DNA of 60,716 bases, counting the filler, from Hausera hauseri (Eukaryota), in assembly GCA_046269625.1 (NCBI GenBank). It is 11 parts of 11 records of this genome, joined end to end, with 100 filler letters (N's around TTAATTAATTAA, not from the genome) between each part and the next. Parts side by side here need not be neighbours in the genome. Positions count along the whole stretch, not along the records: positions 39,565 to 44,460 come from JBJURY010400035.1; 10 more parts are not named here. One strand, given 5' to 3'. The notes below the pieces were generated by a model. It saw nothing but the letters and a program-made list of their open reading frames with translations, ran no database searches and had not been told where the DNA came from. Made by a program: the position numbers and the translations under genes. Positions 36,057 through 60,716 of the stretch are shown here, piece after piece (position 1 is the stretch's first letter; every line of letters starts with the position of its first letter).

Positions 36057-36259
36057 GTGTTCAACAGTTTTTAAACTAGGTATAAATAGTTAACCACCGG
36101 TTGCTGTTCCAAGTTCTGAAATTGCACAAAGTAACAAAAGTGTTATGATGATATCAAATACTACTGCTATAGTTCAACTACTTGAGTCCTTCTGTAAGTC
36201 CTTTTACATTTTATTTTCTAAAAGAAGTTTTGTGCACTGGTACGTTGGAGAAGGATTTT
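36057..36259 (+). pseudogene. Divergent alpha-tubulin C-terminal fragment, truncated by LTR insertion
   Basis: CSTVFKLGINS*PPVAVP...MISNTTAI...KRSFVHWYVGEG versus alpha-tubulin CPTGFKVGINYQPPTVVP...MLSNTTAI...KRAFVHWYVGEG. Confidence 0.85.
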
Positions 36260-39200
36260 TGTGGGAATTCGATTACCCGGAATTTGGGACCCGCCGCGAC
36301 AAGGCTGACGTCCCGGCCGCTCACCCTGCACCATTGGGTCAGACGGCGCCGTTCGTTGCCGCCCCACAACACGCCCCGGACACACCACCTCTTTATCTCC
36401 TTTTCTTTTTTATCAACAACAGGCATATTAGCACACATACAGCAACACATGTAAACACTGCTGCCATCCATAAAATCATCTCCACTTCTTTTCATTCCTG
36501 TAACTTTTATGTCACACAATGGATCTTTAGTACCCCTCGCTGGAACTCTAAAATCTTCCTCAACCCACATCTGTCTTCACATTAACTTCCGTATCCGTGG
36601 TGGCATGGATTCATCACCCACAATTGATACCACGGACAAACTCACCAAACCACAAATCCCCATCATTCACTTATCCAAACAAATTGCTTCAAACACCCCC
36701 ACACAACACACACTCCTCACTCATTCACCCGGCACCAAATACTTTCTCGACAGCCAAAACTCTACTCAAACTTGGCTAAAACTGCACCAATTTTGGCTCC
36801 AATCATAAAACGTCGTCGACTCTTTATCCAAAGCCAACATCCTCTTTTTTCATTTATCAGCTTCCACCAAACTAAAATTACCAATATCATCGATATCCTT
36901 CAGCAAACCGATCCATATGCTCAACTTTACAAGGCTGTTCTCAAGCTTATTCAGCCGTCAATCGATTCAATTATTCAAAGGTTCGTTAACGACAACGCCA
37001 TGGGCCTTTAGAAGCCTTCTGAATTCCTACGCACATCCTTGTCTCACCTCAACACCCTCAGCGTAACATCTGAGCATAGTCCAGAACTTATTCGTCGCTA
37101 TTTCTTAAATGCATTTCCCCTTCAAATAAGAGCTTTGCTTACCGTAGTCGAGGACTCCACTGCTCTGGACAAGCTAGCCGAACTGGCAGATAAAGCATAC
37201 GAAGTACTACACTCACACAGCACCAACTATCTCTGCAGCATTAACAACAGACCAACAACAACAAAATGCAATAATGCAGCAACAATTTGCGCAATTACAC
37301 ACAGAAACTGAAATGTTGCAAAAAACCATTAACATAAACGAAAAATTAAGCGAACTAACGCTGCCTCGACGGGGTTTTTCTATGGCTGCTTCCCGTAATG
37401 TATTTAATCAACGTCAAAAACGGTGGCCTTCGCCCGCGCGGTCATTAATTTGCTATTATCATAGCAAATTTGGTAACAGTGCTCAGAAATGCTGCATCGC
37501 TTGTAACTTTAATTCCCCGATTTTAATACAAGCGACATCGTTTGCATCTACCATTCAAAATTTGGCACAAAAGCACAAAAATGCCTACCTGGCTGCAACA
37601 ACAACACAATAAATCCAATATTACTAAATTCACACAGCACAGTAGACCAAACTCACCAACTACGAAAAACTGATTTCGCCGCTAGGACACACGGCAAGTC
37701 CTAACATGGGCAACAACCAGCAAAAAGACAGCCGACACATCTCTTGCTGTATTCACGTTGGAAGCACCATTCGTCACTCCAACAAAGCAAAACATTAACT
37801 TTCTTATACACACTGGTGCAGCAATCTCTCTACTGTCACCAACACAACACATCCAAAACAATTTCACCTCAAAAAAAAACAACTGTTCACTGCGTCCGGT
37901 GAACCTTTACAAACTTTTGGTGTTACTAAATAAACGTTCACACTTCCAAATTTCCCAAACACATTCACTGGGAAATTTACAGTAGCCAATGTACGCACAC
38001 CTATATTGGGTTCAGACTTTCTGTCCCACTAAAATTTACTTGTCGATTGCAAGCGATGTTCCTTAAAATGAGGAAATAATCTCAATCAAATTAGCAGCAT
38101 TTAGGTGACCACCCAGACGATCGCGTCCAGTACGTCAATACTGAAGCAAACGACTTCCGATTTAAATTATTTTTACAATCATACATTATACAGAAATTTT
38201 TACTACGGTGACAAATGCGATATTGCCAACTGCGTGGCACCTATTACTAATAGCACAGCTTCAAACACCATCTTCAACACAAACATCCTGCACCAAGTAC
38301 CACCCAGTCACAACACCTCGTCCATAACTCATACCTCAGCTGCATCCTGTCATGATGCATCGACACCATCGGATAATTTGTCATCGTTGCCTTCTGATCT
38401 ACAGCAATACATTTCGTCTTCCTACACGCGTCTGTTGCAAAAGGACAAATCATTCGTACCACCTCAATCCACCTTTCATCATATAGTAACAGCACAAAGA
38501 CCAATACGGCAAAAGGTCCGCACGCTTTCGCCTCGTCACATACAGGCAGTGGAGGCTGAGTTTCTCGAACTGGAACGATCAGGAATAATCAGAAGATCCA
38601 AATCCCCATGGTCTTCGCCACTGCATGTGGTTCCAAAAACAGATGGCACCTTTCGCCCATGCGGTAATTACCGCCAACTCAATAGCATAACCACAATGGA
38701 TGCCTAGCCTCTACCATTAATCAACGATATCCTTCGCAGGCTCCACGGTTCGACCATATTTTCCTGCATTGATTTACACAAAGCATACCACAAAATTCCG
38801 CTGGCCCCAGCAGACATTGCGAAAACGGATGTCATTACACTTTTCGGCCTTTTTGAATACCTATTTATGCCTTTTGAACTCCGTAGCGCTTCCCAGACTT
38901 CCAAAGGCATATCGATACAGTTCTCTCATGTTTAGACTTCGACTATCCCTATATTGATGATATCTTAATTGCATCATCTTCCTCCAAACAACACTCTGAA
39001 CACTTACGCTTAATCTTCCAGAGCTTACACCAAAACAACTTGCAAATCAAGTTCTCTAAATGCTGCTTTTTCAACATAAGGTCAATTTCCTAGGACATGT
39101 TATTAGCTCCTCCAGACATTCACCTCAGCCAAACCGCATCACACAGCTCAAAAACAGACAGATACCACTTACATCAACAGAGATGCGTTCTTTCCTCGGA

Positions 39201-39464
39201 ACCTTGCACTTTATTCATAAGTAAGTTCCACACTGCTCCACTCTAACCGCTCAATTTGCATCACTAAGCTCTGGCAAGAAGAAACAACCTATTCAATGAA
39301 CTGCCAAGCTATTCAACGCTTTCGATCACCTCAAAGACAATTTAAAAACTGGAAATCCTGGCCTATCCCGACTCCCATGAAAAACTCTTCTTAACCACCG
39401 ACGCATCCACAACAGCTGCAGGTGCTGTCCTCCATCAAGTTAAAAATGGATCCCATGAGCCATT
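36260..39464 (+). mobile_element. Degraded Ty3/Gypsy element: 5' LTR (36260-36368), gag, protease, RT, start of RNase H
   Basis: TGTGGG...CCCACA LTR; KPSEFLR, CYYHSKFG; FLIHTGAAISL; SPWSSPLHVVPK; YIDD; TDAS. Confidence 0.92.
37664..37703 (+). promoter_or_regulatory. -1 frameshift site (G AAA AAC plus pseudoknot)
   Basis: Same layout as 242-283: 7-nt spacer, GCCG/CGGC and TAGGAC/GTCCTA stems. Confidence 0.7.
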
Positions 39465-39564
39465 NNNNNNNNNNNNNNNNNNNNNNNNNNNNNNNNNNNN
39501 NNNNNNNNTTAATTAATTAANNNNNNNNNNNNNNNNNNNNNNNNNNNNNNNNNNNNNNNNNNNN

Positions 39565-40725
39565 TCTTGGTAGTTGGTATGTATCCGTCTCCGTTATTTC
39601 ATTTAAGGCTCTATAGTCTATGCAAAATCTCATACTTCCATCTTTCTTTTTAATCATTACTACTGGCGCTGTCCATGGAGAACAACTTGGTCAAATTATC
39701 TTATTTTCCCGCATCTCCTTTATTATTTTGCGAGTTTCCTGTTTCTTATCATATGCCAGTCGATACGGTCTCTTCTTAATCGGCTTGTCCTGTCCGTCCT
39801 TCAACTTAGTGACATGCTGTATTACTTTCATGGTACCAAGGTCATAGTCGGTTTGTGAAAATCGACTGGCATTCTTTTTTAATAATTTCACTAACATTTC
39901 CTTTTCTTCCTTACTTAGAATTTCACATTTCTGCAGTCTCTCTTTTCAATTAATATTTGTGGTTTTATTTCTTTTGTCTTCGTCCGGTTTTTTTCCCAGT
40001 TTTTCCATCTTCATCTTTTCTATTTTATCCACATCTAATATTACTGAGCAAGTTTCTTCTTTGGTTATTTCTTCAGTGATCGTTGTTTTTTTCATTCTAG
40101 TATCCTTTCGTAATCGTTTTCCCTTATTTGTCGTATTACAAATGCATAAGTGAACTTTTCCATCTCTAACTTTATTTACGTGAAAGGCGATTAGGACTTC
40201 ATACTTTTCCGTAACTTGTGGAAATGGTTCAAAATAAATAATTTCTTTAGCGTTCGACTTTCTGCTTCTCCAGGGACCATTATCTCAGATCGTGGTGGGA
40301 TCGTAATGTCTTTCGTTAATGAAACCATTCATTCGTTACGATCTTCACCGAACGTCTTAAGTTGACATGTTCTCATATATATACGCGTTTTCCAATTGAT
40401 TTAATATATCACATCCTATTAAAATTTCGTTAGTCAGATTATCGGCTATTCTTATAGTATGTTTCAAAATTTGTACTCCAATCTTGATTTTGGCGTCCAG
40501 GATCATTTTGATTTCTTCTTCTGTGCCAAATGCTCCTACGTTGACTAGTGTAGTAGTTGGCCTTCGCAACTTCCTTTTTAATTCCTTTGGCAATTGGCTT
40601 CTTTCCATTATCGTCGTTGTAGATCCAGTACATAGCAAGGCCATCATGGGGTATCCATTTACTTCTATTTCTATTTCTGGCCTTATAGGTGGTTGTCGTT
40701 CATTTTTATCATACACCGTGTACAT
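39565..40725 (-). pseudogene. pol: Gypsy aspartic protease and N-terminal RT
   Basis: IEVNGYPMMALLCTGSTTTIM...ILIGCDIL; PIKKRPYRL...[27 protein letters not shown]. Confidence 0.9.
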
Positions 40726-41034
40726 GAATTCACGTTTATAAGTTGTTAAATTTTCTTCAAAACTTTTTCATCTGCTGTACCTGTCGTATAGGGCATAGTT
40801 CTGTATGTACTACGTATCGGGGAGCTGATGGATTTATTAACGGTTGTTCATTATACATTTGTCCGTGATATTTATCTGCAGGATACAGACGAGGTAGGTC
40901 TGTTATTAATTTCTGTCTACACTTAGGCTTCCATGTTTTAAGTATTAGTTGTTTAACACTAGGTACTCGTTTCTTTGCTTTTATTTGACTATATTCGGCA
41001 TCATCATTATCAGGTATACTATATTGGGATTCTT

Positions 41035-42917
41035 TCATGTCTTTTCTTTCAGTATCTTTCTCTTCCATCGTGCATCATGGTTTGCTAAGAGGCAACTTGC
41101 TACTGCCGGTACTACCTTTTTTAGAATCTTCCATGAGCATCCTACTGCGGCATGTATCCCATATGCCTTACCTAATGCCGTAAATACTGTTCGAAGGGCG
41201 CTAATTATAAAATATATCGCTAGAAAACCTGAAGCGGTTGACCAAAATATAAAAACTTGCCCCACATCTTTTCCATTACATTTTTCGTCACCTTCTTTAA
41301 ATAGTCCTTACCCATAAGATTTTCCCACTGTAATGATCCTTCGCCATTCCACATTACTGTCCTTGTCAATTCCGTTATGACCCTCTGTCTCTGCTGGGGA
41401 AACAACAACATACGTCGATAGTCTTCTAGATTTTGCTGTGTGTAAATTCCTCCTTGCGATATTCCAGTCAACGGTTCGAATTTCTGATTCCGTTGTAAAT
41501 TAATTAAACTCAATGTCTCTGGTTTAGATACTCGTTCTCTTTTGGGCATCCTAATCCACTTATCGTTATCAATCTCGAACATGGGCGACATATTAAAGGT
41601 ACAATTATATAGAGGAGTATGCTTCATGTTATTGTCTAATAATATTCTAGTTACTGGCATTAAATATTTTGGTTCCGTATGGTACATCACAGGTAATTCC
41701 ATCATACATACTTCTGTTGGCCTAATTGATACTTCCACATTCTTACGTTCTATTGTTATTAAAACTTCGCCCATTACTCTGTCGATAATTCCGTCACCGA
41801 AGGGCATTACAGGCGCTACCATATCCGGGTTCGTTATTACCAGCGCCATTTTATTACGCATTATTTCGTAATTCAGCTTGCACTCGTTCATTATTATTTC
41901 ACGATATAGACCTCTAATCTCTTTCCTTACGTAATTAATTAAAAAATCAATCTTATTGTCGAAATATTGCGTCAGTTTTATATCTTATCTATTTTGGTTT
42001 TCGCCCCGAGTATCTCTTTTCTTGATAAGAAAATACCCTTAGTTAGTTTTCGATGCTTCGTTACATTTAGTTGCTACTCCCGTAATCTTGAATCGCATCA
42101 TATCTTCCGGGTTTTCTGAATATACAATCGTAGCCACTTCTGTCATCTTCACTTCCTTTGTTCCTTCTTTATACGTGGCTGTTTCTTTTTCCGCTGTTTT
42201 TCCTACCGTTTTATTAAATTTTCCTTCCTTCAGTAACGTTAATTGACATTTACTTGCTGTGACTTCCCATGTCATTTTCGATTCTCCGGTATCACATTCG
42301 CCATTATCATATTCACATTCGCTCATAGTCGTCATTATTTTTGTCTGTGAATCAAATAATACTTCATATTCCTTCAACTGGATCTGGTAATCTTCGATGG
42401 CTACCGTCCTAGGCGCAATGGTACCTCCTACGTCGTAATCTACCCCTTTGCACGTTCCTTCCATCGTCTTATCTATTCTTCCTGCCTTGAAAATTCTGGT
42501 ATATTTTATCCGATTCCGAACTGCTGGTACATGTGCGTTTTGTATAGTTATAATACCAATCTTGAAAGCTTCTTGGCACTCTGATCGTGATATAATAATT
42601 GGTTCGAAAGGTGTGGTGGGTTCGATTATGGCTGAGTTTCCTGAATAGTAGGCACAATAAAACAAGAAAAATGATCTCTTTACGTAACATCCCCTGACTT
42701 TTGCTTTTATGAATTCCGATTCTTGATATACCCAGTATGTAAGACCACTTGTCGTGGTTAACTGTTCTGGGTCAGCTTCTGGGCATTTCTCCAAATCCAT
42801 TAGAGAGTACTTTTGACCTTCACTAGGTTTAGAGCAGTCATAAGCTATTATACCCACAGCTTTTGGCATCAATAATGACGTTATTAGGAGAATTTGAATA
42901 ATCTCCATCATTGACAT
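41035..42917 (-). pseudogene. env: Chuvirus-like envelope glycoprotein
   Basis: Hydrophobic signal then IIAYDC...SL...C...Q....C..R...YC; YFDNKIDF...LYREIIMNECKL; G....MGEV...VEVSIRPTEVC..ELPV....YL.P.TRIL; GIYT; WGKFLYFG followed by a TM segment. The motif order matches recalled Jingchuvirales glycoproteins. Confidence 0.8.
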
Positions 42918-44355
42918 ACCTGTTATGCCTGCTCTAGAGATGTTTGGTTGTGTCGCCATTGGCGTATCTATTAGTCTTTCTCGTTCTCCTGGCCTTATTA
43001 CGTTGGTCATCAGGCTGGTTAACCATCCACCTCTACATTGAGCCCAATTGCCTAACGTATCTTTCAAAATTTTTACGGCTGTTCTTATATTCCGCTCAAT
43101 TTCTTCTAGGTTTTGCGTTTGGTGATTGATTACTATTATTTTATATAGAAGGTATGATATCGCCGTTCGAGCTTTTTCGCGTGTAATTCCGGTTGCGAAC
43201 ATTTTTTCTAAAATATCCATCTCATGCAGTTCATTTATCCGTTCTTCCTCTAAATTTTCGTAGAATTGCCTACTTATTCGTAGCATATTATTATGTAACG
43301 TTGTGAATAGTTCATCTGGTATTATTGCCTGCATGTCAAATGAGGCAAATGACGTATGTAGTCTAGCCAATAATGTTCTTAATAATGGATCTATGTCCAC
43401 CGATTCAGGAGTACCATCTGTTCCTGCTAATAATAATCGTCTCACTATTTCTTCATTTCTATCTTTTCTATTACGAATATCACTTATTTTTGTTCCTTTC
43501 GGCCTACCTCTTCTCTTAGCTTCTGTTTGAACCGTAACATCCTGCGTATCACCTATAGGAATTTCTTCTACTCCGGGTGGTTCTAGTTCTCTTATAATAT
43601 TTTCTACTGTAGCCTGGGCTCTTGCCTCTGGATGTATTTCGGTTATCGTTATCGGATTGTAGTTCTCACTTCTACATCCAATTCTCAATAATTTGTCGTA
43701 GTTATATAACGTTCTTCCATAGTAATTTAGTCCATATGGGCTTCCCTGATAGAAAGGTTCCAACTCCTCAATCCTTTCTCTTAGGCTTTGTATATCGTCT
43801 ACTTCCTTCATCCTAATAACCCTCATATCTTGGTTTCCTTCCCTTACTGTTATCCGTAAAACTTCGTTCCTTCCTTTCTCATCTTCGGCAACCTTGGCCA
43901 ATACCGTTCTTGCTACTTCTCTTACAGGATTCGTATCCTGGGCTAATAACACTAATTGAAGTAAAATTTCATTCACCCTTTCTGACGTTACTTTATTAGT
44001 AAGTATCTTTAATATCGTGGTTGTTGTTTTATCTACATCGATTATATTATTGGGATCAACAGTTATTACTGCCTGAATAATATCTTCTTCTTCGTCTAAG
44101 TCTACGCCTAGATTTCTTATTACTTTAATCCAATATAGTATCGTCAAATATTGGCGTAGCTTGGGTTTCTTCCGGACTGAATGAGGGTGAGGGTGTGCTG
44201 AGATTACTCTTCTTTCTTCCTCTTTTCTTTTCTTTTAATACCTCTTCTCTCTCGGTTGACGTTTCTCTTGATTCAACCTCTACATCAACTATTTTCTTAT
44301 TGCCTTTCTTTCTTCCTTTACGGGATCCTTGTTTCTCTGGTTGATTTTCTATCAT
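42918..44355 (-). CDS. Unknown charged, probably helical domain with AT-hook/NLS-like motifs, in frame with env
   Basis: The first ~410 aa of ORF 42039..44147 run directly into the env signal peptide; KRRGRPKG; KKRGRKK in the overlapping upstream frame. Confidence 0.7.
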
Positions 44356-44560
44356 ATAAATACTACTTTCTTTCAGTCTTTGCTGCTGTCTTTTATACTC
44401 CTTTAATTCTATTTCTAATTGCTTCTTTACATGGTGAGGTAATGTATCGTTTATATAGTTNNNNNNNNNNNNNNNNNNNNNNNNNNNNNNNNNNNNNNNN
44501 NNNNTTAATTAATTAANNNNNNNNNNNNNNNNNNNNNNNNNNNNNNNNNNNNNNNNNNNN

Positions 44561-45200
44561 GCTAGATCTGGTGCAACAGCTGCGAAGCATATTAGCGAAT
44601 TGAAATGCTCAACCGCATTAGACGTAGCCACATCAGATGCAGCGGCTCCAACAAAAAGTCAATGGCAGCGGTCAGTTTATGCTACAGAGTTAAAGAGAAA
44701 ATTCCGCAGTTATGGTGTTGATGCAACTGGCCAAACAACCCTCCAAGAGTTCCTATTATGCACAGAGGAAGAAACAGGGAATTTTTCAGGACAACATGGC
44801 TAAGCTCAAGGCATTTAAGGTCAATATGAAACTGAAGGCCACATACATCAATGTTGATGGCGAAGATTCCAAGAGGGCCTTCAAGACCAAAAATAGGCCC
44901 ATATTGGAAACAACCAATATAGTGGAATGGCTGTATGAGGAACACAGGAAGATGATCCGTGAAGCCAGAGAGAGCCCGGATAAGAAAAGCTACTGGACTT
45001 TGTCAGCCATACAGACTGCTTGTGTATGTGCACAAGTACTCCCTGAACGGAGTCAGCAGAAAAACGTATGCATCAATGCCAATAATAGTGACAAAATGTG
45101 TTTCATGTATGCCATTCTATCAAAACTTGTAATGGATCAAAAACATTCCTCACGAGTCACAGTATAGCGAAACATCCAGCACAACTATGACTTCCAATAT
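44561..45200 (+). pseudogene. polB: Polinton pPolB N-terminal region fragment
   Basis: KVNMKLKATY...RAFKTKNRP...CFMYAILSKL, homologous to 54300-54892. Confidence 0.8.
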
Positions 45201-45799: not shown

Positions 45800-47950
45800 T
45801 GTGTCCGTGACCGCGTCACCACATCACCCCAGTGGCAGAATAGAAACGATGTGAAGGAAAAAACAATGATGAAGATAAGATGGATGAAAATGATGAGTCG
45901 CAAAATGAACAATGTTCGGTGCCTATTCGGTTTTAGTATGGGTCAGGCGTTGTGTAACATCAAAGAACTTTTCTATGCAGTACGTATTGAATGTCACTGT
46001 GCGTGGCTTACTCGATGGATTTGTGCTGGGTTGTTGAGTGATATTTTGTGATGAAAATTATAGTGAAGATAAGTCAAGCAAAAAGGCGATGCAATTGGAG
46101 GTGATGAAAAGTCATTTAGAAAATCTGTAGGAGTGCGAGATGAGTTTGAGTTGGAGGTAGAATTGGCATTTGAAATGTCGTCAATGAAGAAAGCGGGCTT
46201 TAAGGTCGAAATATAGATTTTGTAAGGTTTATCTTGGCGTAAGATGGTTGCTGGGTGAGATGAGAGATTCAGCAGTTTGTATGGACCAACATATTGAGGT
46301 CTAAAACAAGAAGGCGATTGATACTTCAGTCGCACAAACTCGGAGGCAAATAAACCCTTTGGAATATAGGATTTGTTGTTGTTAAATAGACGACAGAATG
46401 AATCTAAGCTGACATCGACAAAGTGAGATTGTGAATCACGAATGTTTTCGTCTGCGGGGTTGTCGTTGGGATCCGAAAGCTCAAATAGTGCCAGAATTGG
46501 AGTTCCAAAGAGTGCTTCGGCTGGAGCACAAGCGGTAGTGGTAGAAGGTGTGTTGCAATACCCTAGTAGAACAAATGGTAGAATGGACGTCCAATTACGA
46601 TGAATGTCAGCCAAGATTTTTGAAGAAATTTTCATTGTGCGATGGAGTCTTTCAAGGAGGCCATTTGCTTGAGAATGATATAGTGTAGTATGGAAATGGG
46701 ATATTCCCAAACCCTTGACAATTGATTTGAAAAGTTTCGTCTCAAATTGTGGACCTTGATCTATTATTATGTGACGTGTAGAACCAAAGCGACTGATCCA
46801 GATTTTAATAAAAGGCGTATGCAACTGAACCAGTGTTCGTTGAACGAAGAGGAACGGCTTCAGGCCAGCGAGAAGCACGTTTCATCATGGTAAGTATATG
46901 TTAATATCCGTTGTCTGAAGGCCAAGGATTAACTAGACCAAGATGAACCGTAGGGAAACGTGATTGACAGGGAAATGGTACAGTGGCGGTTTGAGGTGTT
47001 TGTTGATTTTGTATTTCTGACAGGCTACGCATTCTTTAACCCAACCCTGTACATCTCTACGCATTAATGGCCATACTACATGACGTTCAAGTAGGCGAAA
47101 GGTTGCTTTGGAACCTGGATGATGGAGTGAATGCGTGTTAACAAAAGCTGGCTTTTGTAAAGATGGTGCTAAAATGATCTTTTTATTACCGATATTCGAC
47201 GTATCATAAGCAATGCCATCGGTGATCTCGAAAGATTTGAAGAAACTAAGGAGGCCTGCAGACGGTAGATTTGCCTTTAACACGTCGGATGGGAAAATGG
47301 GATCAACTGTGATGGAGCCAACCGACCTCGATAGAAAATCTGCTACTAGATTATCTGTGCCTCAGATGTATTCCAAAACAAAGCTGAACGCAGACAGGTA
47401 TGATATATGTCTCCACTGCCTCGGTGATGGCTGTTTTAACGACATGATGTGTAGGAGAGGCTTTTAATCAGTTTGAGTGACAAATAAACGAGACAGAAGT
47501 ATATTTTTAAAATGTTTTACTGCCTGAACTATGGAGAGTAACTCACGGTCAAATGTTGAATAACGGCTTTCGGGTTGTTTAAACTTCCTAAAGTAAAATT
47601 TTAATGGTTCATCAATCCCGTTGGAAATTTGGTGTAATATCGCACCAGTTGCTGTGGTCGAGGCATTGGTAGTAAGTATAAGATCTTCGTTGAGCTTTGG
47701 ATAGGCCAGTATTTCGACCGATTTAGGCCATCGCGTAAGTGATCAAACTTAGTGACTAAATCAGGAGTCCAGTGAATCAACAGCCTTTTTTCCCAATATG
47801 ACAAATGTGCAAAAGATGCCGTAAGCTCAGAACAATGAGGTACGTATTTGTGGATGAAGTGGAGTGTGCCTAAGAAGCTTTTCATGTGCGTGGTAGTCGT
47901 TGGTAGAGTAATGTTCTTCAATTGTTGTAGTCGATCCGGTTATGGAGAGT
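45800..47950 (-). mobile_element. pol: Degraded Ty3/Gypsy RNase H-integrase with PPT and LTR start
   Basis: SFLGTLHFIHKYVP, HSLHHPG, ECVACQ, IDQGPQFE, ERLHR; GGGGTGA|TGTGGTG at 45830-45817. Confidence 0.9.
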
Positions 47951-48580
47951 GGCCGTGAGAAGTGCTGACGTGACTGTAATTTCGAAACGTTGTAAATAAA
48001 CTCGTACATAAAAGGTTTCCATCAAAGCCATAAGTAGAATGATCCAACATAAACAAAATTTAAAATTTCTATTTCTAAACTTCTTACAAATCAATTTTTA
48101 TATTCTACATCTACATATTCATACCTATATACACAAATATATACATGTTTCCTTGTAAACTTTCATTCATACAAACATATACATTCAATTGCAAACATCA
48201 ACTCATACACACAAAATTACATATTCCCATGCAAACATCCACTTGTACACAAGCATACACATGTTCCCATACAAACATCCTTCTATATAAACAAGCATAT
48301 ATATATACTGTTATAGGGGGCAAACATTATTATCTCTTTTCTTTCTTCTACTTTGAGGAGAAAGCGTACAATTCTGTGCATTACTGCCTCTAAAGAGGCA
48401 GTACTATTGAGTACTTGAGTACTATTGGACAACAAATCAAGAAAATAATAGGTTGAATAGAGGCACATGCATAGGTCCTATCGGCTCATCTGCGTCCAAG
48501 CATCCCATCAGCATGAAGCTCAACAGTCTAAGCAAACTTTTAATGATTAAATCCATACTAATGATTCCACAAAATGGTTT

Positions 48581-50977
48581 TTAACCATTTAATTTATTTG
48601 TAGAAACAGTTGAAACAACTACATCATTACCCGATGTTAATTCACTTGTTATTGGATTATCTGACATTATTTTCAATTCTGGTGTAGCACTAACATTTAT
48701 GTTCTCAAATTCGGTTTTGACGTTTGATACAGATTGAATTGTTTCAATATTAGGCTTCATACTAACTCGCTGAATTTCTTCGGGTAACTGAGATTCTACA
48801 GTAGGTTTGTTAACATTTATTTGAGAACCGTTAACAGGTGAACAAACGTTAACACCCGGAATATTTAATAAACCGGAGTGATTAGTAATAATACTCACAG
48901 AATTATTGATTTCAGAAGGTTCAAGTATTGTTGCTTGATAACTAACTGTCGGAGATTTCTGCACACTAACAGATAATGAAATCGAAGATGATACACTTGA
49001 AGTCGAGCTAGTAACTGGAAGATTTTTCACATTTGATACATTTGAACACCGTTTATTTCTCTTCGAAGTACCCTTTTCGATTTTCACTTTATTTTGATTT
49101 TCAGCATTTTGTTCTTGCATTACTCGTTCAATGACACTCTTAACGTAGGACGTAAGATCTTCTTTCTCTACGGTATTTGTATTATTGGCATTTACTTGTT
49201 TCAATGGATAAAGTTTAACGTTTGAATTGTCAAGCACAGTTCCTTCAACAATAATATTGCTAGAATTATTATTTGTTGTTTCACTGTTGGAATTATCAGA
49301 ACATTTATCCAAAACTTGATTTGCAATATTCATGCTGCTTAACTGAGACTCTGAATTAGTAATATTTGGTGAAATAATATTGCTTATAGAACTGGACGAA
49401 GTGATTGATTCTTCTAATGCAGTTTCAATACTAAGGAAAAGATTATTATTTGTTTCATCTTCGCTTTTATGATCAACATTTATTTCGGATTCGCAAAAAA
49501 TTATAACTTTCGGTGTCGAAACTCGAACTTCTTCATGACTGATATTTATAAAGCTATCTATTATATTCTCTTTTATGTCGTTATGTTTTACATTTTCAAC
49601 ATTTGTGGATTCAGTAACTGTATCTACATCAGAGTTCGCATCACATTTCCAGATTAATGGTGACCTTATTTCACTTTCTTCTTTTAGCATTATACTAGCA
49701 ATAGCAATATCTTGCTCTTCTTTATCTAATTCGGTTTTTTCATCATCCGCAAATTTTGAACTTTCTAATTCACCCGTATTATTTACTATTTCAAATTTAC
49801 AATCCTCAATTTCTTTACTTACTAATTCATTTGAATCAATTAAGCTTTCTATCAATTCTTTTCCAGTGTTGTTTTCTAAATTATCGTTTTCATTTTTAAT
49901 TATTGCTGATGATTCTTCTTCGTCCAATTTAACAAAAGATATATTATTAATATTTTTGGAAATAATTTCAAAGCTTCCGACTTTTTCTTTAACTATATTT
50001 CCACTTTCACAACTGCTTTGATAACTTAAACCTGATTTCCAATCATCATCCGACAATTTCATACTTTCTAAATCAACTTCAGCATATTCCACAGAATAAG
50101 ATTTAATAACCAAAAATCTAGCCAAAGCCAGCTTTGATAAATGAAACAGCTGAGGATTAATTGTCTGCATAGTTTCTATTAAACGTTTTTTGATTTGGGG
50201 GTCTGAGATAGATGAAATGATTTCACGAAATCTTTTTACATCGAAAGTAGTAGAAGTCTGTGTCACAATATTGTCAGAACAATAACAATCGTTAATGCTT
50301 AAGCTTTTTAATGTCTGATGAAAGTTTTCATCGAGTAAATGAGCATCATAAGGATTCCAAGCGAGACCTGGTGCAGGTGCTTCGACCGATAAGTTTCCTG
50401 AATTATTCTGCTTGTTGTACTGAGGATTTTTCCTTATAATCTGATTGTTTTGTGGAGAATTTGACATTTTGGATTTGGAACTGTTTACTGGTAGTGGATT
50501 GAAATTATTGTCGAGGTTATTAGCAACAGCCGAAGAAAAGTTACTATTGCTGTTCATAGGATTGTCGGAGTTTTTTGTCATCATAAACGCATTCTGATGA
50601 GGATCAATATTCGGAGAAAGACCCAGGCCTGGTAAACTGTAATAATTTGATAATGAACAATAATTTGAATGAGTTCCAGCATTAGGAAACTGATATAAAA
50701 GTGGCATAAATTCTAAGGGACTGTAGATACACTGATTTGCCATACTATTTGTATAAGCGTCATAACCAATATTTGGTGGCTGTGAATAATAACTTGTTTC
50801 TCCATCGGATATAATTCTATTATTATAATGAACCTGTTCTGAATCATTTCTTGAAGTTTTTTCATCGTTTAAATTTTGATATTGCTGTTTAGGAACGAAA
50901 GGAATAGAGAAACAATCATCCCACTTCTGACACCAATTTGTGGGTAGTAATAATCCATCGTATAAAATAAATCCAAA
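48581..50977 (-). CDS. Large host exon, unknown N/S/E-rich protein (~800 codons)
   Basis: 720-aa ORF whose frame stays open upstream (FGFILYDGLLLPTNWCQKW...) to a pyrimidine-rich acceptor TTTTGCTTTGTTAG ending at 50978. Confidence 0.7.
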   Translation of the reverse strand, partial: FGFILYDGLLLPTNWCQKWDDCFSIPFVPKQQYQNLNDEKTSRNDSEQVHYNNRIISDGETSYYSQPPNIGYDAYTNSMANQCIYSPLEFMPLLYQFPNAGTHSNYCSLSNYYSLPGLGLSPNIDPHQNAFMMTKNSDNPMNSNSNFSSAVANNLDNNFNPLPVNSSKSKMSNSPQNNQIIRKNPQYNKQNNSGNLSVEAPAPGLAWNPYDAHLLDENFHQTLKSLSINDCYCSDNIVTQTSTTFDVKRFREIISSISDPQIKKRLIETMQTINPQLFHLSKLALARFLVIKSYSVEYAEVDLESMKLSDDDWKSGLSYQSSCESGNIVKEKVGSFEIISKNINNISFVKLDEEESSAIIKNENDNLENNTGKELIESLIDSNELVSKEIEDCKFEIVNNTGELESSKFADDEKTELDKEEQDIAIASIMLKEESEIRSPLIWKCDANSDVDTVTESTNVENVKHNDIKENIIDSFINISHEEVRVSTPKVIIFCESEINVDHKSEDETNNNLFLSIETALEESITSSSSISNIISPNITNSESQLSSMNIANQVLDKCSDNSNSETTNNNSSNIIVEGTVLDNSNVKLYPLKQVNANNTNTVEKEDLTSYVKSVIERVMQEQNAENQNKVKIEKGTSKRNKRCSNVSNVKNLPVTSSTSSVSSSISLSVSVQKSPTVSYQATILEPSEINNSVSIITNHSGLLNIPGVNVCSPVNGSQINVNKPTVESQLPEEIQRVSMKPNIETIQSVSNVKTEFENINVSATPELKIMSDNPITSELTSGNDVVVSTVSTNKLNG

Positions 50978-51542: not shown

Positions 51543-54500
51543 TTACAATAATACCACATGTCCATGAGGTAGTGTCTGAATTCCGTCTTCAAGAATGTTC
51601 TTCTTATCATCGAACCAATTGAAATTTTTCTTCCACAACGCAACTGTGGCAATCTGACGTTCTCGGGACCGGATTCTTTTCATCTCGCTGACTATGTGAC
51701 TTTGTTCCCGCAACACTCTCTCAAAATCTCCAAAACCCATGTCTTTAGCTAATGTGGCACTTTGAACGCCCTTGGCCTGCTTCTTCACCTGATTACTTAC
51801 ATCGATGGCGTACATTTTTAATCTCAGCACCACGAAACGGGTGATAATCTTTTCATTCACCTTGTCTTTAAACATCTCAAGGACCTTCTTGTTGGTAACT
51901 GAATAATTTGGATGAGCCTTCGGATAGTCTAAGGTATCCATATATTGCGCCAATTTTGCATTCTTTTAAAATACATAATCTGTGCAAATCTGGTATATGA
52001 AACCGTCTGTGTCCATGTACATTAGCTGGAGCTCCATGAATGTGGAGACCATGATGTTGTAATAAAAGTCATACATCAAAGTCTTAGATAGATCTAATAT
52101 GGACATGCCCATATATAGGCTTGTTGAACTCAAGTGATGTCTTGAGCACATTAATGCTCAACAGGTTCTCTGTGTAGATTGTCCTGCTGTGGAAGTTGGA
52201 CTTAGCGATGAGTTTCTTTGCGCTTTTCCAGTCACATACTAGCTCAATGTTTATCCGGTTTCGGATGTTCTCCATAGTTTTGCCAAAGACCGAGTTGTTG
52301 TAAAGTTTGAATTGGTCCTTTGAAACTCTTTCTTGGCATTGGCACTCAATTGAGTATTGAGGTCTATGTATAGATTCAGCCATTTGGACTGGCTGGACTG
52401 CAGGGTCCGATGAATCCTGATGACTCGGAGTCCATTATGGATGGCCTGTTGGAGATTGATGTAGTGGACTACATACCTCTCCGTGTTTTCGAGATGGCAG
52501 TGCAGCTTATTATGCTTAACATTTGGTGGCCTCTTGCTCTCCGGCAGAAAAGGCAGCTGCTCATACATTGTGTGGATGCTATGAGGGTATACCACATCCA
52601 CCTCCAGTATATATCCCGTATCTCCAGTAGGATCTAGGTCCAATATTTGGATATCTTCAGGATTCTCGACCCATTTAAAGTTATCATAGGGCAATGGGTT
52701 GCTCATTGCCCATTCATACAAGTTGTTGACTTCCAGATATGAAATATATGAGGATTCCTTTGACGGATCATAATTTTCCATGTATTTGTTGTTGGCTTTA
52801 CTGTAGCTGTGAATGGCGTGGCATATTCCACCTCTAATGCCTCTCTCAACTATGAGGACCATATTGTAATCTTTCAATATTTGGAGCCCTATACCGGTAT
52901 AGCGCAGAATCGCCACCCAGCTCATTCCTGGAGCTGTAAGGAAATTGGCTGGATCTTGTGGCTCGTAAGGGTTACATCCCGGAAACGTTCGAAGACATCT
53001 GTAAGCAGCAGCACATCTTTGAGGCGATAGATATCACTGTATTCTCCCATGGCCCTGCACTGGAAGGTTTGCCATACTCTTTGGGCATGCTCATAATCAG
53101 CATCGCTAATATGACTGAGTAACAACTGACTATAAAAGTCCTTATTGTCCGGTAATGTTTCTTCATCCAGTGTTGCCCATGACGTTATATAGTCATAGGG
53201 GAAGATGCCTTTCCTCTTGACGAGGCCAAATGCAGCGGGGAAGAACCGCTTCGTCTCCTTAAGTTCTTCTGCAGGGAGATTCTTCACTAAGCTATCCTGT
53301 GACAAGCTCATGAAGCGGAAGCTGTCTATGAATCGAAATTGAATGTGGCCCACATGCTTAGCAAAGGTGATATATTTTTCCTCACAGTTTGGAATGACAT
53401 CAATGTTTTTATCAATATTACCAAGTTCCCGAACAATGAAATAGAAATCATAACCACTGAGATTGTGGAACACTACATGCACATGTGTACATGTTTTGCA
53501 ACGTAGATTGCAGTTGTTGCATGCTGCACCTCGATATTTGCCTGTAAAATGGCAATGATCCCTGACTTTATAATTATCCTTGGTGAAGGACTTGTTGCAC
53601 AAGTAGCATGTTGTTACCTTGCGCCATTCATCTTCTTGCTGATTCGACATGCTCACTGTATCCTTATGCTGCTGAAGCGTGTTTTTAAGCATATGAGCTA
53701 TGTCTTCTAATCTCTTCATAAAATGTGCTGCTGCTTCTGGCCCTCTGAATAGAAATGGTTTACTGTCCAGTCCTTTGGCATACATACAATATGATGAGAG
53801 TTCATGATATTTGTATGTTGTTGTGCTGCTATGTTGGGGATTAGGGCTGCAGATGTGAACTGGGCTGAGGATGGCCTTATAATAGCAATAGACGACAATC
53901 GGCACCTTCCGCATCTTCTCAAACTCCTTGAATTCCAGGTAAACCTCCTTGGTGAATTCTGCTCGGATGCAATAATATGTATTACAGTAGGTCTTGTGCT
54001 CCATCAACTTTTCTGCGGCTGTCTACCCATTAAAATTGGTAAAGAATCTCTTGCATATTTCCAGCCTTGATTTATGCTTGGATATTTGGGATCGTACAAG
54101 GCGCTCAAAATTCTTGATCCAGATGAAATGCACCGTTTCTCCATCATCTATCAGGAGTAAATCCTTATAATCCTCCAATTCCTCCTTGTATACATGCAAT
54201 TGGTAAAATTTGTCCTCCTTCAATCCGAAGATGTTGCTTGAGATGTTGTTCACGCTTTCAAATTTCACGACTTCTTCTAGGCTCGGCGGAAATGAAATAC
54301 AGCTGAAGTTGTATGTGTGCTGCACTTTGTCATATATCCAAACGTGGGAAGCATTATGTTGATCCTGGACTAGTTTTGATAAAATGGCATATATGAAACA
54401 CATGTTGTCATTATTATGGACATTAACACATGCCTTTTTCTTAACTATCCATTAAGGAAGCGGTATGTAGGACTTGCTTCTTGTGGGAGAATACTTGTGC

Positions 54501-55289
54501 ACATGCACAAGTAACCGCTTTATTGTTGCTAAAGTCCAACTGCTCTTCTTGTCCTGGCTTTCTTCGGCTTCAAGGATGAGCCTTGCATAGTCCACTGTAA
54601 TGAAATCCTTAATGTTAAAGGATTTCACTAGTGGCCTGTTTTTTGTCTTAAAGGCTCTATTAAACAGCTCTCCCTTGACATTGGTGAAGGTGGCTTCCAA
54701 TTTGAAGTTCACCTTAAGGGATTCCAGCTCCAACAAGTTGTCCTGGAGAATGCCTGCTGCCTCCTGCTTAGAATATTCCAGGAATTCATGGAGCAATGTC
54801 TGCCCCACTGCTGGTATGAAGTATTGGCGAACTTTGCTCTTCAGTGCAGCTGTATCAACTGGCCGCTGTCTTTGGATTTTTTGATGAAGCATCTGCTGCT
54901 ACTTCTGATAGTACTTTTGGTCCTGCATCAGGCCTTGTTGCTAAAGTAGGCTATACAACTGGCTGTACTCTCACAGCAGGATACTGCTCATTAAATGTGA
55001 CGTTCTCTGGCTCTGAATTGAAGTCTGGCAAATGGGAAATATGATCTTTGTAAAACTGCATGTATTTTCCATCACATACAGCCTCACATCCAGGGCAAAT
55101 ATAATAAAGGATTCTATGGAATTTGTATCCATAATAGCTCCTCGTGGCATTGTGGCAATTATGAGGATTGTGTATTACACATGTGAAATACACATGTGAA
55201 CTGCACCTTTGATTTTTCTTTGGCATGAAAGTCGTTATTGGCATATTGGTACTGAATATTTGTGTTTTCGACTTGGTGAAGGAAATCAA
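51543..55289 (-). pseudogene. polB: Near-complete Polinton/adintovirus-type protein-primed DNA polymerase B, multiply frameshifted
   Basis: VRDHCHFTGKYRGAACNNCNL, FHNLSGYD, FIDSFRFM, KGIFPYDY, RGGIC, YLEVNNLYEWAMS, KLYNNSVFGKTMENIRNR, YMDTDG, KMYA, AKGV, DDKK. Confidence 0.95.
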
Positions 55290-55637: not shown

Positions 55638-56487
55638 ATAGTAGCGAACATTCCGTCGCATCGGGAAATCATCTCCTTTTTAATGAATTTTTCAGTCCAT
55701 GCTGATCCGAGACTAATATAGTGGGTGTAGATTGTTCCGATACATCTTCGCGTGTCCTTGAGTTGGTATCCGATTTATCCAAATATCGCTTTCCAGTAGT
55801 TTCATTAAACTTCAGTTCCTTAATTTTAATAAAATTACAACTTCTTCCAGAGGGAGGTTCCCATATTATGACAGAACTTCTAAAAGCACAGGTTCCGTCT
55901 TGTAAATGACATTTTTGATTCTCGGTGTATAACGTAGTGACACTATGGAACATTACTTTGTGTGATCGCATTACCGATTCATAGAAATCCACAACTACCA
56001 CGTTTGCTTGTAATCCTTTTCCGGTGTCGTATTGTGCTCCGTGACAATGTCCTCTATGCATATCTAACCTTTCGACCATTACTTTGTATGCCATAATTAT
56101 CTTTCCTGGTTGCATTTCTAATTACATACTGTCACATTGTACTCTTCCGGTCTCCTTAGTCTGTTTGCAGTGCTGGCGTTCTAAGTTCATTGGGATTGGA
56201 GGGGTTGTTGGTTTGATTATTGAGGAATGTCCGTGTACTAACCCGCAGTGAAAAATGCTACGAGATTGTCTCAGCATACATTCCGTTTCATCTAATGATA
56301 TCAATTCTTGTTGATACAGAAAGTAAATTTTCTCTTTCGTTTCTAACTTGTTCAGCCTGGCATCTTCGCACACTTCCAAATCCATTAGGGAATATCTCTG
56401 CCCTAGTTTGAACTTATCGCAATCGTAGACGGTAGCAGCGCCTATTTGCTTTATTAACATTATAAAGGTGAGAAGGTTAATTAGCCA
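55638..56487 (-). pseudogene. env: Chuvirus-like envelope glycoprotein, N-terminal part
   Basis: WLINLLTFIMLIKQIGAATVYDCDKFKLGQRYSLMDLEVC...YQ...C...HCG...PTTP...C...G; clearly homologous to AYDCSKPSEGQKYSLMDLEKC at ~42840. Confidence 0.82.
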
Positions 56488-59400
56488 ACTTGTTTCACTT
56501 TTCCGGTGGCCCATATCCGTTGTTGTCAAATTACGTAACATATCGTAGAGTCTATTACTCCGTTTGTCTTCTTCCTTGTCAAATAGTTTGACCAAGTTAC
56601 TTCGCAAGGAAACTTCCTAGCCGCTCTTCGTGCTAAGCTTATAGCTTTGATGATTTCGTTCTCTTTAGGATTTATTTTGATAGCTAAGTATAGCAATACT
56701 TAATTCTTCATTGGTGCTTTCTACCATAATCTTTTTGATTACCACTTCGTCGGTTAAGTTACTTTTTGATAGTTTAAAACGTGAACTTCGCATCATTGCA
56801 TTAAATATTACTTTTTCTTTATCATCTGGTATGTCACCTCGAAGGCTCGAATAATTTACAATTCGTATCAAATTTTTCATTAACTCGCTTAATTCCTCAT
56901 TGTTTGTACTGAAAGTCGGAATGGACATCTGTCTTAATTCTCTAATCAATTCCCCATTATAACCAATTTCTTCTCTTGTCTTCTTAGGTCTACCGACTGG
57001 GCGTTTCTGTCTTGGAACATTGGCTATCGTTTCACTCAGCGGCACTAAATTCTTGTCGTATTGTTTTTTTTCCTCATCCGTTTGCAAATACTCGAAATAC
57101 ATTGCAGCATCTCGGACTCCCATGATTTTTTCTACGCATTGTTCTGCCTTGGCCTTACGCACGGCTTCTTTAGTTTGCTCATTGGCTACTATTGCCACTA
57201 TTCGATTTGTTTCGTCGGGAATAATTTCGGTTCATTTTTAACATCTGGGAGTTCATAGTCTATTAAGGCTGTATTCGTTCTCACATTTTCTCGAATTTCC
57301 TTTAATTTTGGTTGTATTTCTTTTATCTGCGTAGTTTGGAAACCTATGTCATTTCCGCAGGCATACTGAATTATTTTCAGTAATTCGCCTAATTCGTTAG
57401 AGTTGATGAGTCCTTTTTCGTGATAATCTGTTAGTTCAATAATTACATCTTTGCCATCTTTGTACAAATTCTCGCTTATTTTTGATCTCTGATTCGGTAA
57501 GAGAATATTTATTTCGGTAGATTTCGAGCTCTTACTAGTTCGTCTAACCTTGTTGCTCTTGGTTTGGTTTTAATTCAGGTTTCTTCAACCTATCTGATTT
57601 TAGGCATCAATTGCCTCATCTTTTCATCGTTAATTTCTGCCATTCTATTGCATCCAGCAATTTCTTTACGAACTTAGATTTTTGAAAACTAAAATGTTGA
57701 TCGTCTCTTATCTTCGTCAACTCGGTGTGGCAATTCTGATTTGATCCGGCTATCCAGTCTTGTGGTTTATGCAAGAATTTTATTGCTTCCGTTAAAGCGG
57801 CTTGATGTTCCGGCCAAATGTCTAGGGTTTCAATATCTCGGATAGAGATTTCGTCGATAGGTTTATCTCTTAAATGTTGGACTGCCTCTAGTCGGATATT
57901 TCTTAATCTTGGGTAAAAGTTGCAAGTCATATTTTGTTTTTCTGTAAAATTCGTCTCTTCGACCATTTTATAGATCTCTTCCAATATCATTACTTCTTGC
58001 TTCTTCATAAAGTTTAGCTGTTGTGCTTCGAATTGAGTTTGGATATCTATTTCCGCCTTTATTGTATCTAAATTACGTGCACTCTCTTCTAACTGTTTCT
58101 TTATAGAAGGCTCGCTCTCTGGAAATTCTTTCCTACGGTTTTCCACTAATTTACTTAGTCACGTTACTAATTCGGACCATTCCGACAATTGATTGGCGAT
58201 TATTGGCTTTGCCATTATAGCCCTACCTAACATCTTATATGCATCCTTTAGTTCATCATCTGGACCTTTTATGAAATTCGTTATCCGGCTGACATAATCG
58301 AACTCGTCCTTGTATTCGTCCAGTTCTATGATACAAGCTTTTACTACGTATTGGGTTTCTTCATGGTTTGGAGATATCATTCGGTTTCTCAAGCTATAAA
58401 TCTGCGCTCGCCTTTCATTTTCCATTTTGATTCGATTCTCTAGATTCGTGTATCGTTTGGGTACAGCGAAAGCGATTTTTATCATCTCCATTAAGGGAGG
58501 AATATCAACTGGGTCTACGCCCAATATTTCTAAATCGGTATTACTTCGATTGCTAACTGGTCTTTTTCTAAGCCGGTTAATCATTGCGTGGCGAATATCG
58601 TCCATCATACGCTCTAAATTACGGACTACTCTCTTCAGTTTTGGGTTTACTTCTAAAGTAGACAATAGCGACCGGGCTTTAGCGACTTTTACGTCGACAC
58701 TATCTTCGTTTTTGCTCTATCCTTCTGAAAATTCAACTCCGCTTTTAATCCATAATTCTAATTCATGCTTCCATTTGGCAGTGTTTTAGGTGATACCTCT
58801 TCAGGTTGTCCTAAGTCGATCGCTTCATCGAGTTTTCCTTCACTGCATAATTTCAAACTTTTATATAACCTCTCATCAAACTGTTGCTCTTTTCCGGATA
58901 TATCTACTTGTTCGCTGATTTGCTTGAGTCTTTCCCAGTTACGTTGTATTATTTCCGGGTCGTGACATCTAATTCTCATTTTCTTTAACTCATCGGCGTT
59001 TTCCCATGAACGTCGAATCTTCCACTTTCTTGGATCAAAATCATCAATATTTTCCGTTTCTTCCTTACTAGTGGAAAGTGGGCAAATCTCGTTAATTTTA
59101 TTTATTGATTCTGTGGATTCTTTTACCTCGGTAGGCGTTAATGGACCAATTTCTGGCGTATTTTAATTATGCTCTACATCGCCTTCTGCTATGGTATTCG
59201 TATTTTTTGTTTCTTCTAATTTCTCTCGAGTTACTTGCGAGCGTGAACGATATCTAAGTTTCGTTTTTAATGCAGGGCTACGGCTCTATTTTTCGTAATT
59301 TTAAGTATTAATGGCTCTATGAATTCTTTTTCATCTGTATCATCTTCGGTAGCCTTATTTGGCTTTTCAACCGTGGACTCAGGTTCTGCATCTAAGTCGA

Positions 59401-59740
59401 CTTCTGTCGAGGTTCCTGGTTTATCAATTATTTTATTACTCGTCGGGACTCTTTCCGCGTCATATCAATTCGTTTGGGTGCTATCGCATATTCATATTCA
59501 GTTTCTGGCTCTACTAAACCATGGTATACTTCTAATAGTCTTAGCTTATCTCCGTATTCTTTTCTAGCCATCAAAATTTGTGGGTTAATAGTCTCGGGCT
59601 GAGCATCTAGAAATCTTCGTAAGTCTTCTATGTCGATGATAGTACCTGTATCTCCACGAACACCATACTTTGCTTCTAAATTTTTATTAACTCTAATCAT
59701 ACTGGTCTTATTAGGCTCAGTAAATGAAACGCTACGTGGG
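56488..59740 (-). pseudogene. ~1100-codon unknown charged/coiled-coil region between gag and env, fragmented
   Basis: Chain of consecutive same-strand ORFs (59428, 58758, 58159, 57616, 57198, 56665, 56122); contains KRPVGRPKK. Confidence 0.65.
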
Positions 59741-60716
59741 TTTGGACATGACCTTGAAATGTGTCCTTTTCCGCAAGTGAACAAATTAAATTTCCGTTTT
59801 TGCCGACTCTGTCGACCGTCTTCGTTCACAGGTGACTTAGGCCTATTTGTGCTTCTATTGTACTGATTCGGAAAACTTTGTGTACTATCTACATTTCTTT
59901 GATTATCATTATTTCGATTATCATCATCACGATTTGAATAGTTCGAACTTTGTAGTTTTCTCGAATTCTATTCGAATTAGAATTTGACTTGTTCATATTT
60001 CGGCCATTAGCATAACTATTGTTTCGATTATTCCTGTAGTCATTATTACTATTTCTATTTTCATAATTTCTATTTCTATTAAATCGTCTATCATCTCTTC
60101 TACGATTGTCATTCGGATTTCTATCGTGACGGTCATGTCGGTCATTTCTATCATTTCCATCGTTGTGTCTGGCATATCTATCGAGTGCCATTTCTAAGTC
60201 TTGAGCCAATTGTAGAGTTTTCTCGAAATTCTCAGGTCTGGTCAAAATCAACTGCTTAATTAAATCTCGGGACCAAATACCGTTATTTAATTGAGTTGTC
60301 ATCAGGACGTCTAAGTCTGGCGAGGTTGCCTTTTCCGCTGCATCACGTACTGCATCTGTTTTAGCCTTTGCTACATTAGTTATTCTCAGAGTACTTACAT
60401 AACTATTAGCGAGTTTCTTCAATGCAAATGCAAACTGGGTTACCGATTCGCCCTTCTGTTGCACTCTAATTTTGAAATGCCATAAGCTTCTGTTGTGGCG
60501 TTACTGTCGGCAATAATTTACGGTTTAATGCTCCTACTAGGGAGGACCAAGATTTCTTTTCATTACTAGTGAGCTCACTATAAGCGTCAGCGGCTAAATT
60601 TTTCAAATATAATGACAAGGGTTTAATCATCACTTCAGGGGTTAGACTAGCACCTTCTGCCTGCAATTTAAAGTTCTCAAGAACTCATTAAGCCCGTCCG
60701 GGTCACCATCGTATGG
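59741..60716 (-). pseudogene. gag: Retrotransposon Gag (capsid, N/R-rich linker, degenerate CCHC knuckle)
   Basis: YDGDP..FL...LYL...AAD.Y..L...SWSSL...QQKGESVTQFAFALKKLA; LFTCGKGHISRSCP. Confidence 0.85.

Follow-up and report, generated by a model that had tools for sequence, protein, structure and literature searches.

A decayed copy of an apparently compact, high-copy Burro-like gypsy retroelement in Hausera hauseri, with predicted ubiquitin-like and Bcl-2-like domains ahead of an in-frame Env

In the genome of Hausera hauseri (GCA_046269625.1), we found a decayed copy of an apparently compact, high-copy Burro-like gypsy retroelement. It lies in a stretch of 60,716 nucleotides that was analyzed as a whole (the window). 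Just ahead of its envelope protein (Env) is a region, which we call X, that according to profiles and predicted folds comprises a four-helix bundle, a ubiquitin-like domain, a basic GRP motif, and then a Bcl-2-like domain. Taken jointly, a Burro-like element with in-frame cargo and a class III Env, and the release of Env by signal peptidase from a Gag-cargo-Env-Pol polyprotein, seem to us a probable account.

The element and its reading frames

The element occupies a 4.9-kb contig (39565..44460) with assembly gaps on both sides (at 39564 and 44461). Its features are listed here in the order of translation, followed by a second element. (Amino acid positions, aa, refer to the minus-strand frame 42039..44234, and P0001 is a relative that is described below.)

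44125..44460, minus strand: basic linker between Gag and X, an open frame in another phase, resembling P0001 aa 213-376
43878..44099, minus strand: four-helix bundle, ORF aa 46-119 (AlphaFold2 model, pLDDT 81-93 by block)
43629..43865, minus strand: ubiquitin/SUMO-like domain, aa 124-202 (Foldseek, VIA, sequence profile)
43494..43541, minus strand: basic linker motif VQT-x2-KRRGRPK, earlier called an "AT-hook", between the ubiquitin-like and Bcl-2-like domains
42996..43370, minus strand: Bcl-2-like domain, about aa 289-413 (Pfam, PDB, profile, Foldseek, VIA)
42852..42917, minus strand: internal signal-like helix, aa 440-461, ending in A-V-G (hydropathy)
40760..42851, minus strand: class III (gB / mononegavirus G-like) Env (Pfam PF24664, E = 5e-24 and 6e-47)
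39565..40767, minus strand: aspartic protease (PR), PR-RT spacer, and start of the reverse transcriptase (RT), decayed (Pfam RVP, E = 1e-9)
55638..60716, minus strand: second, more decayed element on another contig, with Gag pieces, a GRP motif, a signal-like helix, and the start of Env

When translated, frame 42039..44234 has 731 codons without a stop. X and Env share this frame, with Env from aa 442, which agrees with a preliminary description of X as fused in frame to the Env signal peptide. That description gave the ORF as 42039..44147, with ~410 aa ahead of an internal signal sequence. This ORF is open and in frame with Env, and the distance from 44147 to the signal-like helix is exactly 410 aa, but the ORF is a fragment, not a whole gene. 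(Position 44147 is a TTG codon, Leu30, rather than ATG, and the earliest methionine in the 731-codon ORF is at aa 137.) On the 5' side, there is a frame shift near 44,130, and an open frame in the other phase (44125..44460) runs up to the assembly gap at 44461. The similarity of this frame to the Gag-to-X linker of P0001 has a score that was reached by 1 of 1,000 shuffles. The Gag of the window copy lies beyond the gap.

Downstream of X, the Pfam match to Monjiviricetes_fusion (PF24664) begins at aa 442 (E = 5e-24). Env has an ectodomain, a transmembrane helix near 41260-41170, and a tail, and it is disrupted by stops at 42039 and near 41990 and by frame changes near 41240 and 41050. The copy is broken, and its frame from Env to protease is unreadable. 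The region 39565..40767 is collinear with aa 1136-1478 of another relative, P0004 (E = 6e-41), and its RT is cut by the gap at 39564. The PR-RT spacer aligns collinearly with P0004, P0014, and P0146; the one frame of it that was scanned had no Pfam match at E ≤ 0.1. As Env, protease, and RT follow X on the same strand, the order is X-Env-PR-RT. Assembly gaps hide the two ends of the element, so that its length and any LTRs fall outside the readable sequence. We took weak Pfam matches to Glyco_hydro_57, Rep_OBD, DUF4891, DUF5001, and Wbp11 to be due to chance.

The window has ten gaps (such as 39465-39564 and 44461-44560), each made of two runs of N flanking a 12-base TTAA-type linker. By this pattern, the window consists of short contigs joined end to end, and adjacency across the gaps is meaningless. 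Other contigs hold an unbroken gypsy pol frame of 1297 codons (11805-15698, minus strand; RT, RNase H, and integrase) that starts in an assembly gap and has about 400 extra residues past the integrase, with a coiled-coil-like end. Decayed, related gypsy pol copies without Env are at 17460-24670 and 38105-39400 (plus strand) and at 46000-48000 (minus strand). There are also pieces of Polinton/Maverick-like elements at 51543-54898 (minus strand), 5874-8674 (plus strand), and 44694-45167 (plus strand), with matches to protein-primed DNA polymerase B and endonuclease VII and a RING finger at 8117-8674; by eye, 44694-45167 is similar to 54452-54898. The open frame of 798 codons at 48581-50977 (minus strand), rich in Ser and Asn, is perhaps a host exon; Pfam gave nothing convincing for it (only Ependymin, E = 0.022). 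A short fragment of a tubulin C-terminus (36094-36585, plus strand; E = 0.009) is probably a piece of a pseudogene.

Predicted domains of X

The preliminary description treated X as an unknown domain and suggested AlphaFold and Foldseek as a check. For the X of the first element, that check returned ubiquitin-like and Bcl-2 family matches. Given the agreement of sequence profiles and predicted folds, we are nearly certain that these two identifications are correct, so X no longer counts as unknown.

We modeled the N-terminal half of X from five sequences with AlphaFold2 (pLDDT 85), and it is predicted to form four helices and a beta-grasp domain. For the beta-grasp domain, the Foldseek matches include ISG15 (E = 2e-4), and ISG15, ubiquitin, and SUMO are among 27 matches at E ≤ 0.001. 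With VIA, 77 residues aligned with Z = 12.3 and an rmsd of 1.9. A sequence profile gave E = 0.03-0.05 to the ubiquitin-like domains of UHRF1 and ISG15. (A PDB search with the N-terminal part of X as a single sequence gave weak, unrelated matches only.) The domain does not have the C-terminal Gly-Gly. In both fold lists (Foldseek and VIA), all places were taken by the ubiquitin-like domain, which left no fold match for the four-helix bundle itself. A profile built from four relatives recovers the bundle at E = 6e-4.

The Bcl-2-like domain contains a BH1-like FATGITREK and a BH2-like WAQCRGGW. As a single sequence, it matches Pfam's Bcl-2 family at E = 0.032 (15.2 bits versus a cut-off of 31.4), and its best match in the PDB is BOK (E = 0.16). 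Four short relatives match the same Pfam family at E = 8e-5 to 0.012. All of these Pfam scores, for the window copy and the four short relatives, are below the curated cut-off; judging from the sequence, the domain is divergent. A profile of nine retroelement sequences matched Bcl-xL at E = 2e-5, and 60 of the 60 matches listed are from the Bcl-2 family. (An alignment in which P0010 and P0014 were misaligned was set aside and a later alignment was used instead.) The structural model (pLDDT 72, pTM 0.64) is consistent with this. All of the Foldseek matches listed are Bcl-2 family members, at E = 0.013-0.07, with none at E ≤ 0.001 and with TM-scores of 0.26-0.40 by query length. Similarly, ranks 1-27 from VIA are all Bcl-2 family members (best Z = 8.8, rmsd 3.2, 113 residues aligned), and the earliest unrelated row has Z = 5.9. 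A Z near 8 would be weak on its own for a helical domain, and it is the independent sequence profile that makes the Bcl-2 assignment firm. Also, profiles that were built without the window's sequence recover both domains of X in the window, at E = 7e-19 and 4e-11.

Between these domains lies the basic motif that was previously labeled an AT-hook. The RGRP core is indeed in the sequence, but Pfam's AT_hook did not match the motif of the first element at E up to 10, and its match to the motif of the second element (E = 0.018) is under the curated cut-off. We compared 22 sequences, namely the two elements in the window plus 20 relatives, taken from the 30 that extend far upstream of Env. GRP[KR] is present in 6 of the 22; QT precedes the motif in 5 of these 6, and the RGRP core is present in 3 of the 6.

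Relatives, a second element, and known systems

Word-indexed searches for homologs of X (at longer or near lengths) and of Env (at longer lengths) found none; a full HMMER search gave 145 matches. These relatives are gene calls on contigs, not proven proteins. The closest is P0001 (1130 aa), whose match covers aa 14-699 of the query (42%), with 37% identity when X is taken by itself. It has a Gag with a CCHC knuckle, X, the signal helix, and Env in one ORF. We scanned 25 relatives, picked from the 145 for their length or upstream extension. Pfam found Gag ahead of Env in 3 of these. In 9, the ORF that encodes Env continues into protease, and in 5 of these 9 it also contains RT; in P0130, Pol is ahead of Env. 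By eye, P0014 and P0020 have Gag-Env-PR-RT-RH-IN in one ORF. The Pol profile of the relatives matches the Ty3 Gag-Pol at E = 4e-48. (P0014 was deposited as a hypothetical protein from a Flavobacteriaceae metagenome bin and is likely to be animal DNA in a bacterial bin. P0146 has 4844 aa, which is Burro-sized, with Env, seven protease-like stretches, ankyrin repeats, a C2H2 finger, RT, RNase H, and integrase, and with more hydrophobic segments after the integrase.)

What precedes Env varies among the relatives. In the 30 with more than 90 aa ahead of Env, we found the Bcl-2-like domain in 8 and the ubiquitin-like domain in 4, all of which were seeds of the profiles. (P0010 looks ubiquitin-like by eye, yet the profile missed it.) That just 8 of 30 have the Bcl-2-like domain suggests that this cargo is dispensable. 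Other relatives carry other cargo ahead of the Env signal helix: a chromodomain in P0043 (E = 3e-4) and a C-type lectin in P0129 (E = 3e-5). In P0018, this region looks like an exonuclease by eye.

In three public sequencing runs, the contig (39570-44460) was covered in all 30 bins, by 20267, 2747, and 337 contigs. This full coverage by many contigs shows that X is part of a high-copy family. Of the best-supported 40 variant sites (out of 436), 31 are in X, and 23 of these 31 occupy the third position of a codon in the Env frame (p = 4e-6). This excess indicates that X has been under purifying selection in that frame.

The second element includes about 2.8 kb of broken frames. Its Gag pieces, compared with the Gag of P0001, beat 300 of 300 shuffles, and its Env matches Pfam at E = 3e-12. 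The preliminary description listed motifs that are collinear between the two X regions, and all eight of the eight are present, in the order that it gave. One pair, EARAQATVENII/KAKAEQCVEKIM, falls outside the best local alignment of the two regions. By BLASTP, the two regions match at E = 0.009, and a local alignment of 138 columns has p = 0.005-0.01 (2,000 shuffles). The score of the second X against P0001 was reached by 3 of 1,000 shuffles; for four other relatives the counts were 128-345 of 1,000. When the two regions were compared as profiles, which had been proposed as the refuting test, there was no significant match (probability 0.1%), although other evidence supports the X of the first element as genuine. 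The Bcl-2 and ubiquitin-like profiles did no better on the second X than on shuffles (95, 58, and 97 of 300). From these sequence comparisons, it is possible that the two X regions are distantly homologous.

These results bear on an earlier proposal for X, that it is a matrix-like or nucleoprotein-derived protein or an AT-hook chromatin tether that is common to both elements. In its favor are the GRP[KR] motif in some of the sequences and the fact that the two X regions are weakly alike when aligned as a pair. The parts of X that could be matched to a fold resemble ubiquitin-like and Bcl-2 proteins, not matrix or nucleoprotein folds, what speaks for a chromatin tether is one GRP motif that Pfam did not call in the first element, and the profile tests fail on the second. 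We consider this proposal very improbable.

The best match to the first element among known systems is Burro (or GYPSM1). According to PMC6431247, planarian Burro has Ubi2/SUMO-like and then BCL2-like motifs, followed by an in-frame, mononegavirus-like Env that sits between gag and pol, and then protease, a dUTPase-like region, and RT. The same 2019 paper calls the Burro Env the first such in-frame case and reports thousands of copies, as well as decayed copies in a third planarian species. Elsewhere, PMC8532177 reports that BURRO1 is transcribed and controlled by PIWI. The element in the window has the same order (ubiquitin/SUMO-like, BCL2-like, in-frame mononegavirus-like Env, protease, RT): the ubiquitin-like domain is upstream of the Bcl-2-like domain, X and Env are in one frame with PR and RT downstream, and Gag is seen in P0001. 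Judged by likeness to known elements, the host is probably a planarian.

The element also appears to be more compact than Burro. The ORF1 of Burro has 4,873-5,140 aa, and the Burro element is over 30 kb, whereas the element in the window has one protease that lies ~0.5 kb after the transmembrane helix of Env. In P0001, it takes just ~160 aa to go from a single CCHC knuckle to X. No MATH, BIR, RING, or ankyrin domains were found by Pfam in the 4.9-kb contig or in P0001, an absence that points to a compact relative and not to Burro itself. The uninterrupted ORF from Gag to integrase that is typical of Burro is present, by eye, in P0014 and P0020; the window copy is broken and cut by gaps.

A second comparison is with the GAG-ENV-POL errantiviruses with a gB-type Env that PMC13524379 describes in flatworms, bryozoans, and nematodes. 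These include Smed_errantivirus_1-6, with the same gene order as here (a class III Env ahead of a Ty3/gypsy pol). By eye, the domain I-II motifs of the gB-type Env (YVYQES and C-x-TGES) resemble the C1a rows, and the Env motifs of those errantiviruses resemble those of the element in the window. In its supplement, 4 of the 6 Smed_errantivirus elements span ~14.5-14.9 kb, and if these spans include flanks of 3 kb, they would fit a polyprotein of near 2,900 aa. The main text of PMC13524379 does not contain Bcl, ubiquitin, polyprotein, or Burro, so the cargo and its processing are not described there. Similarly, a term search of PMC6338049 gave no mention of Bcl, ubiquitin, or planarians.

Viral Bcl-2 homologs (canarypox CNP058, ASFV A179L, KSHV Bcl-2, BHRF1, and GIV66) have the same predicted fold as the domain in the window, with Z = 8.0-8.8 and rmsd 3.2-3.7, and are 8-15% identical to it in sequence. 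These homologs are stand-alone genes. In the window, by contrast, the domain forms part of a retroelement polyprotein, where the signal helix of Env would serve as its tail anchor.

Release of Env and the role of the cargo

We then considered how Env might be released. The signal-like helix is the sole segment of the ORF with hydropathy above 1.5 (in a 15-residue window), and the hydrophobic stretch covers aa 437-464. The A-V-G at its end directly precedes IIAYDC. Signal peptidase sites follow the -3/-1 rule, which A-V-G fits, and by this sequence rule A-V-G is likely to be the site of cleavage. A hydrophobic helix is present ahead of YDC in 22 of 22 sequences, with the site in each chosen by a script by the helix itself.

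The preliminary description proposed that Env is part of a structural polyprotein, and our results favor this. Relatives have Gag, PR, and RT in the same ORF as Env, and there is no conserved methionine near the helix. An origin of Env within a polyprotein is, in our judgment, very likely.

How most of the Env is made is a separate question. The gypsy errantiviruses of insects express Env from a spliced or subgenomic RNA. If the same were true here, then the polyprotein frame would exist, the RNA behind most of the Env would begin at the signal helix or shortly ahead of it, and the amount of Env would be decoupled from that of Gag-Pol. The window copy does have methionines at the start of the helix (Met440/442/443), and the nearest methionine is within 15 residues of the helix in 9 of the 22 sequences (and at 20-23 residues in another 3), which makes separate initiation possible. 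There are also 11 YAG sites within 250 nt on the 5' side of the helix. Against this, the nearest methionine is beyond 40 residues in 10 of the 22 sequences, including P0001, and X and Env are not separated by a stop codon in the window copy or in the long relatives. Furthermore, the YAG sites do not have a strong pyrimidine tract (3-9 pyrimidines of 17; the mean for 89 sites is 6.45), and none of the 11 stands out as a strong splice acceptor. Overall, we view a spliced or subgenomic RNA, the main alternative, as an unlikely source of most Env. Because there is no methionine near the helix in 10 of the 22 sequences and no strong splice acceptor upstream, signal peptidase is the likeliest main route for the release of Env, and we would expect it to be so.

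If signal peptidase is the main route, then Gag and X would be made in the cytosol, and the internal helix would thread Env into the endoplasmic reticulum (ER). Signal peptidase would cut after A-V-G. The transmembrane helix of Env would bring the chain back across the membrane, so that protease, RT, and integrase would be on the cytosolic side. With these two crossings of the membrane, Gag and X would be cytosolic, the ectodomain of Env would be in the lumen of the ER, and Pol would be cytosolic. The former signal helix would then hold the Bcl-2-like domain to the ER membrane on its cytosolic side, much as Bcl-2 proteins are anchored by their tails. Gag would be cut away from the cargo by the protease of the element.

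There is a precedent for this kind of anchoring. In flaviviruses and hepaciviruses, the capsid protein carries at its end the signal sequence for the glycoprotein that follows, and it stays anchored in the membrane once signal peptidase has cut. The likeness to these polyproteins is an analogy of mechanism only; we do not claim homology.

What would the cargo do? The Bcl-2-like domain might most likely dampen cell death or stress signaling in the host. We hold this anti-apoptotic role to be a tentative proposal, with odds somewhat short of even. Alternatively, the Bcl-2-like and ubiquitin-like domains could be structural or trafficking adaptors that have lost any role in regulating cell death, and might tether Gag to membranes or contact the proteasome or dynein. 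We give this alternative a little less credence, but it has several points in its favor. First, the BH1 is degenerate, with TREK where NWGR is expected (BOK has TWGK), and the position of the groove glycine differs among the aligned relatives. Second, the ubiquitin-like domain does not end in Gly-Gly, and the Bcl-2 domain is absent from many relatives. Third, X has a conserved QT-basic-GRP motif, which we take to resemble a dynein light chain site. On the other side, most of the nine aligned sequences retain both W-x5-GGW, the BH2-like motif, and the basic residue of BH1. Also, PMC13465017 cites a 2026 study in which the IAP module of Burro1, a second anti-death module, is said to protect stem cells.

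A more specific idea is that one helix serves as both the signal of Env and the tail anchor of the Bcl-2-like domain, and that the slot before this helix is a bay for swappable cargo. With every Env produced, the ER would then retain an anti-death module along with a tether for Gag, and Pol would hang from the cytosolic tail of Env. We offer this as a speculative reading, which could well be wrong. Our literature search did not find a description of such dual processing as signal and anchor; Grohme 2018 and the 2026 Burro1 study were outside that search.

Because this layout was already published, the finding itself is modest. What it adds is the support from profiles and predicted folds for domains that were previously identified by HHpred, along with evidence of purifying selection on the cargo domains. 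This apparently compact version would also be easier to study than the 30-kb Burro. If the signal helix is the anchor of the Bcl-2-like domain, this would explain how an element with Gag, Env, and Pol in one ORF sorts its proteins across the ER, and how such an element could keep the stem cells of its host alive.
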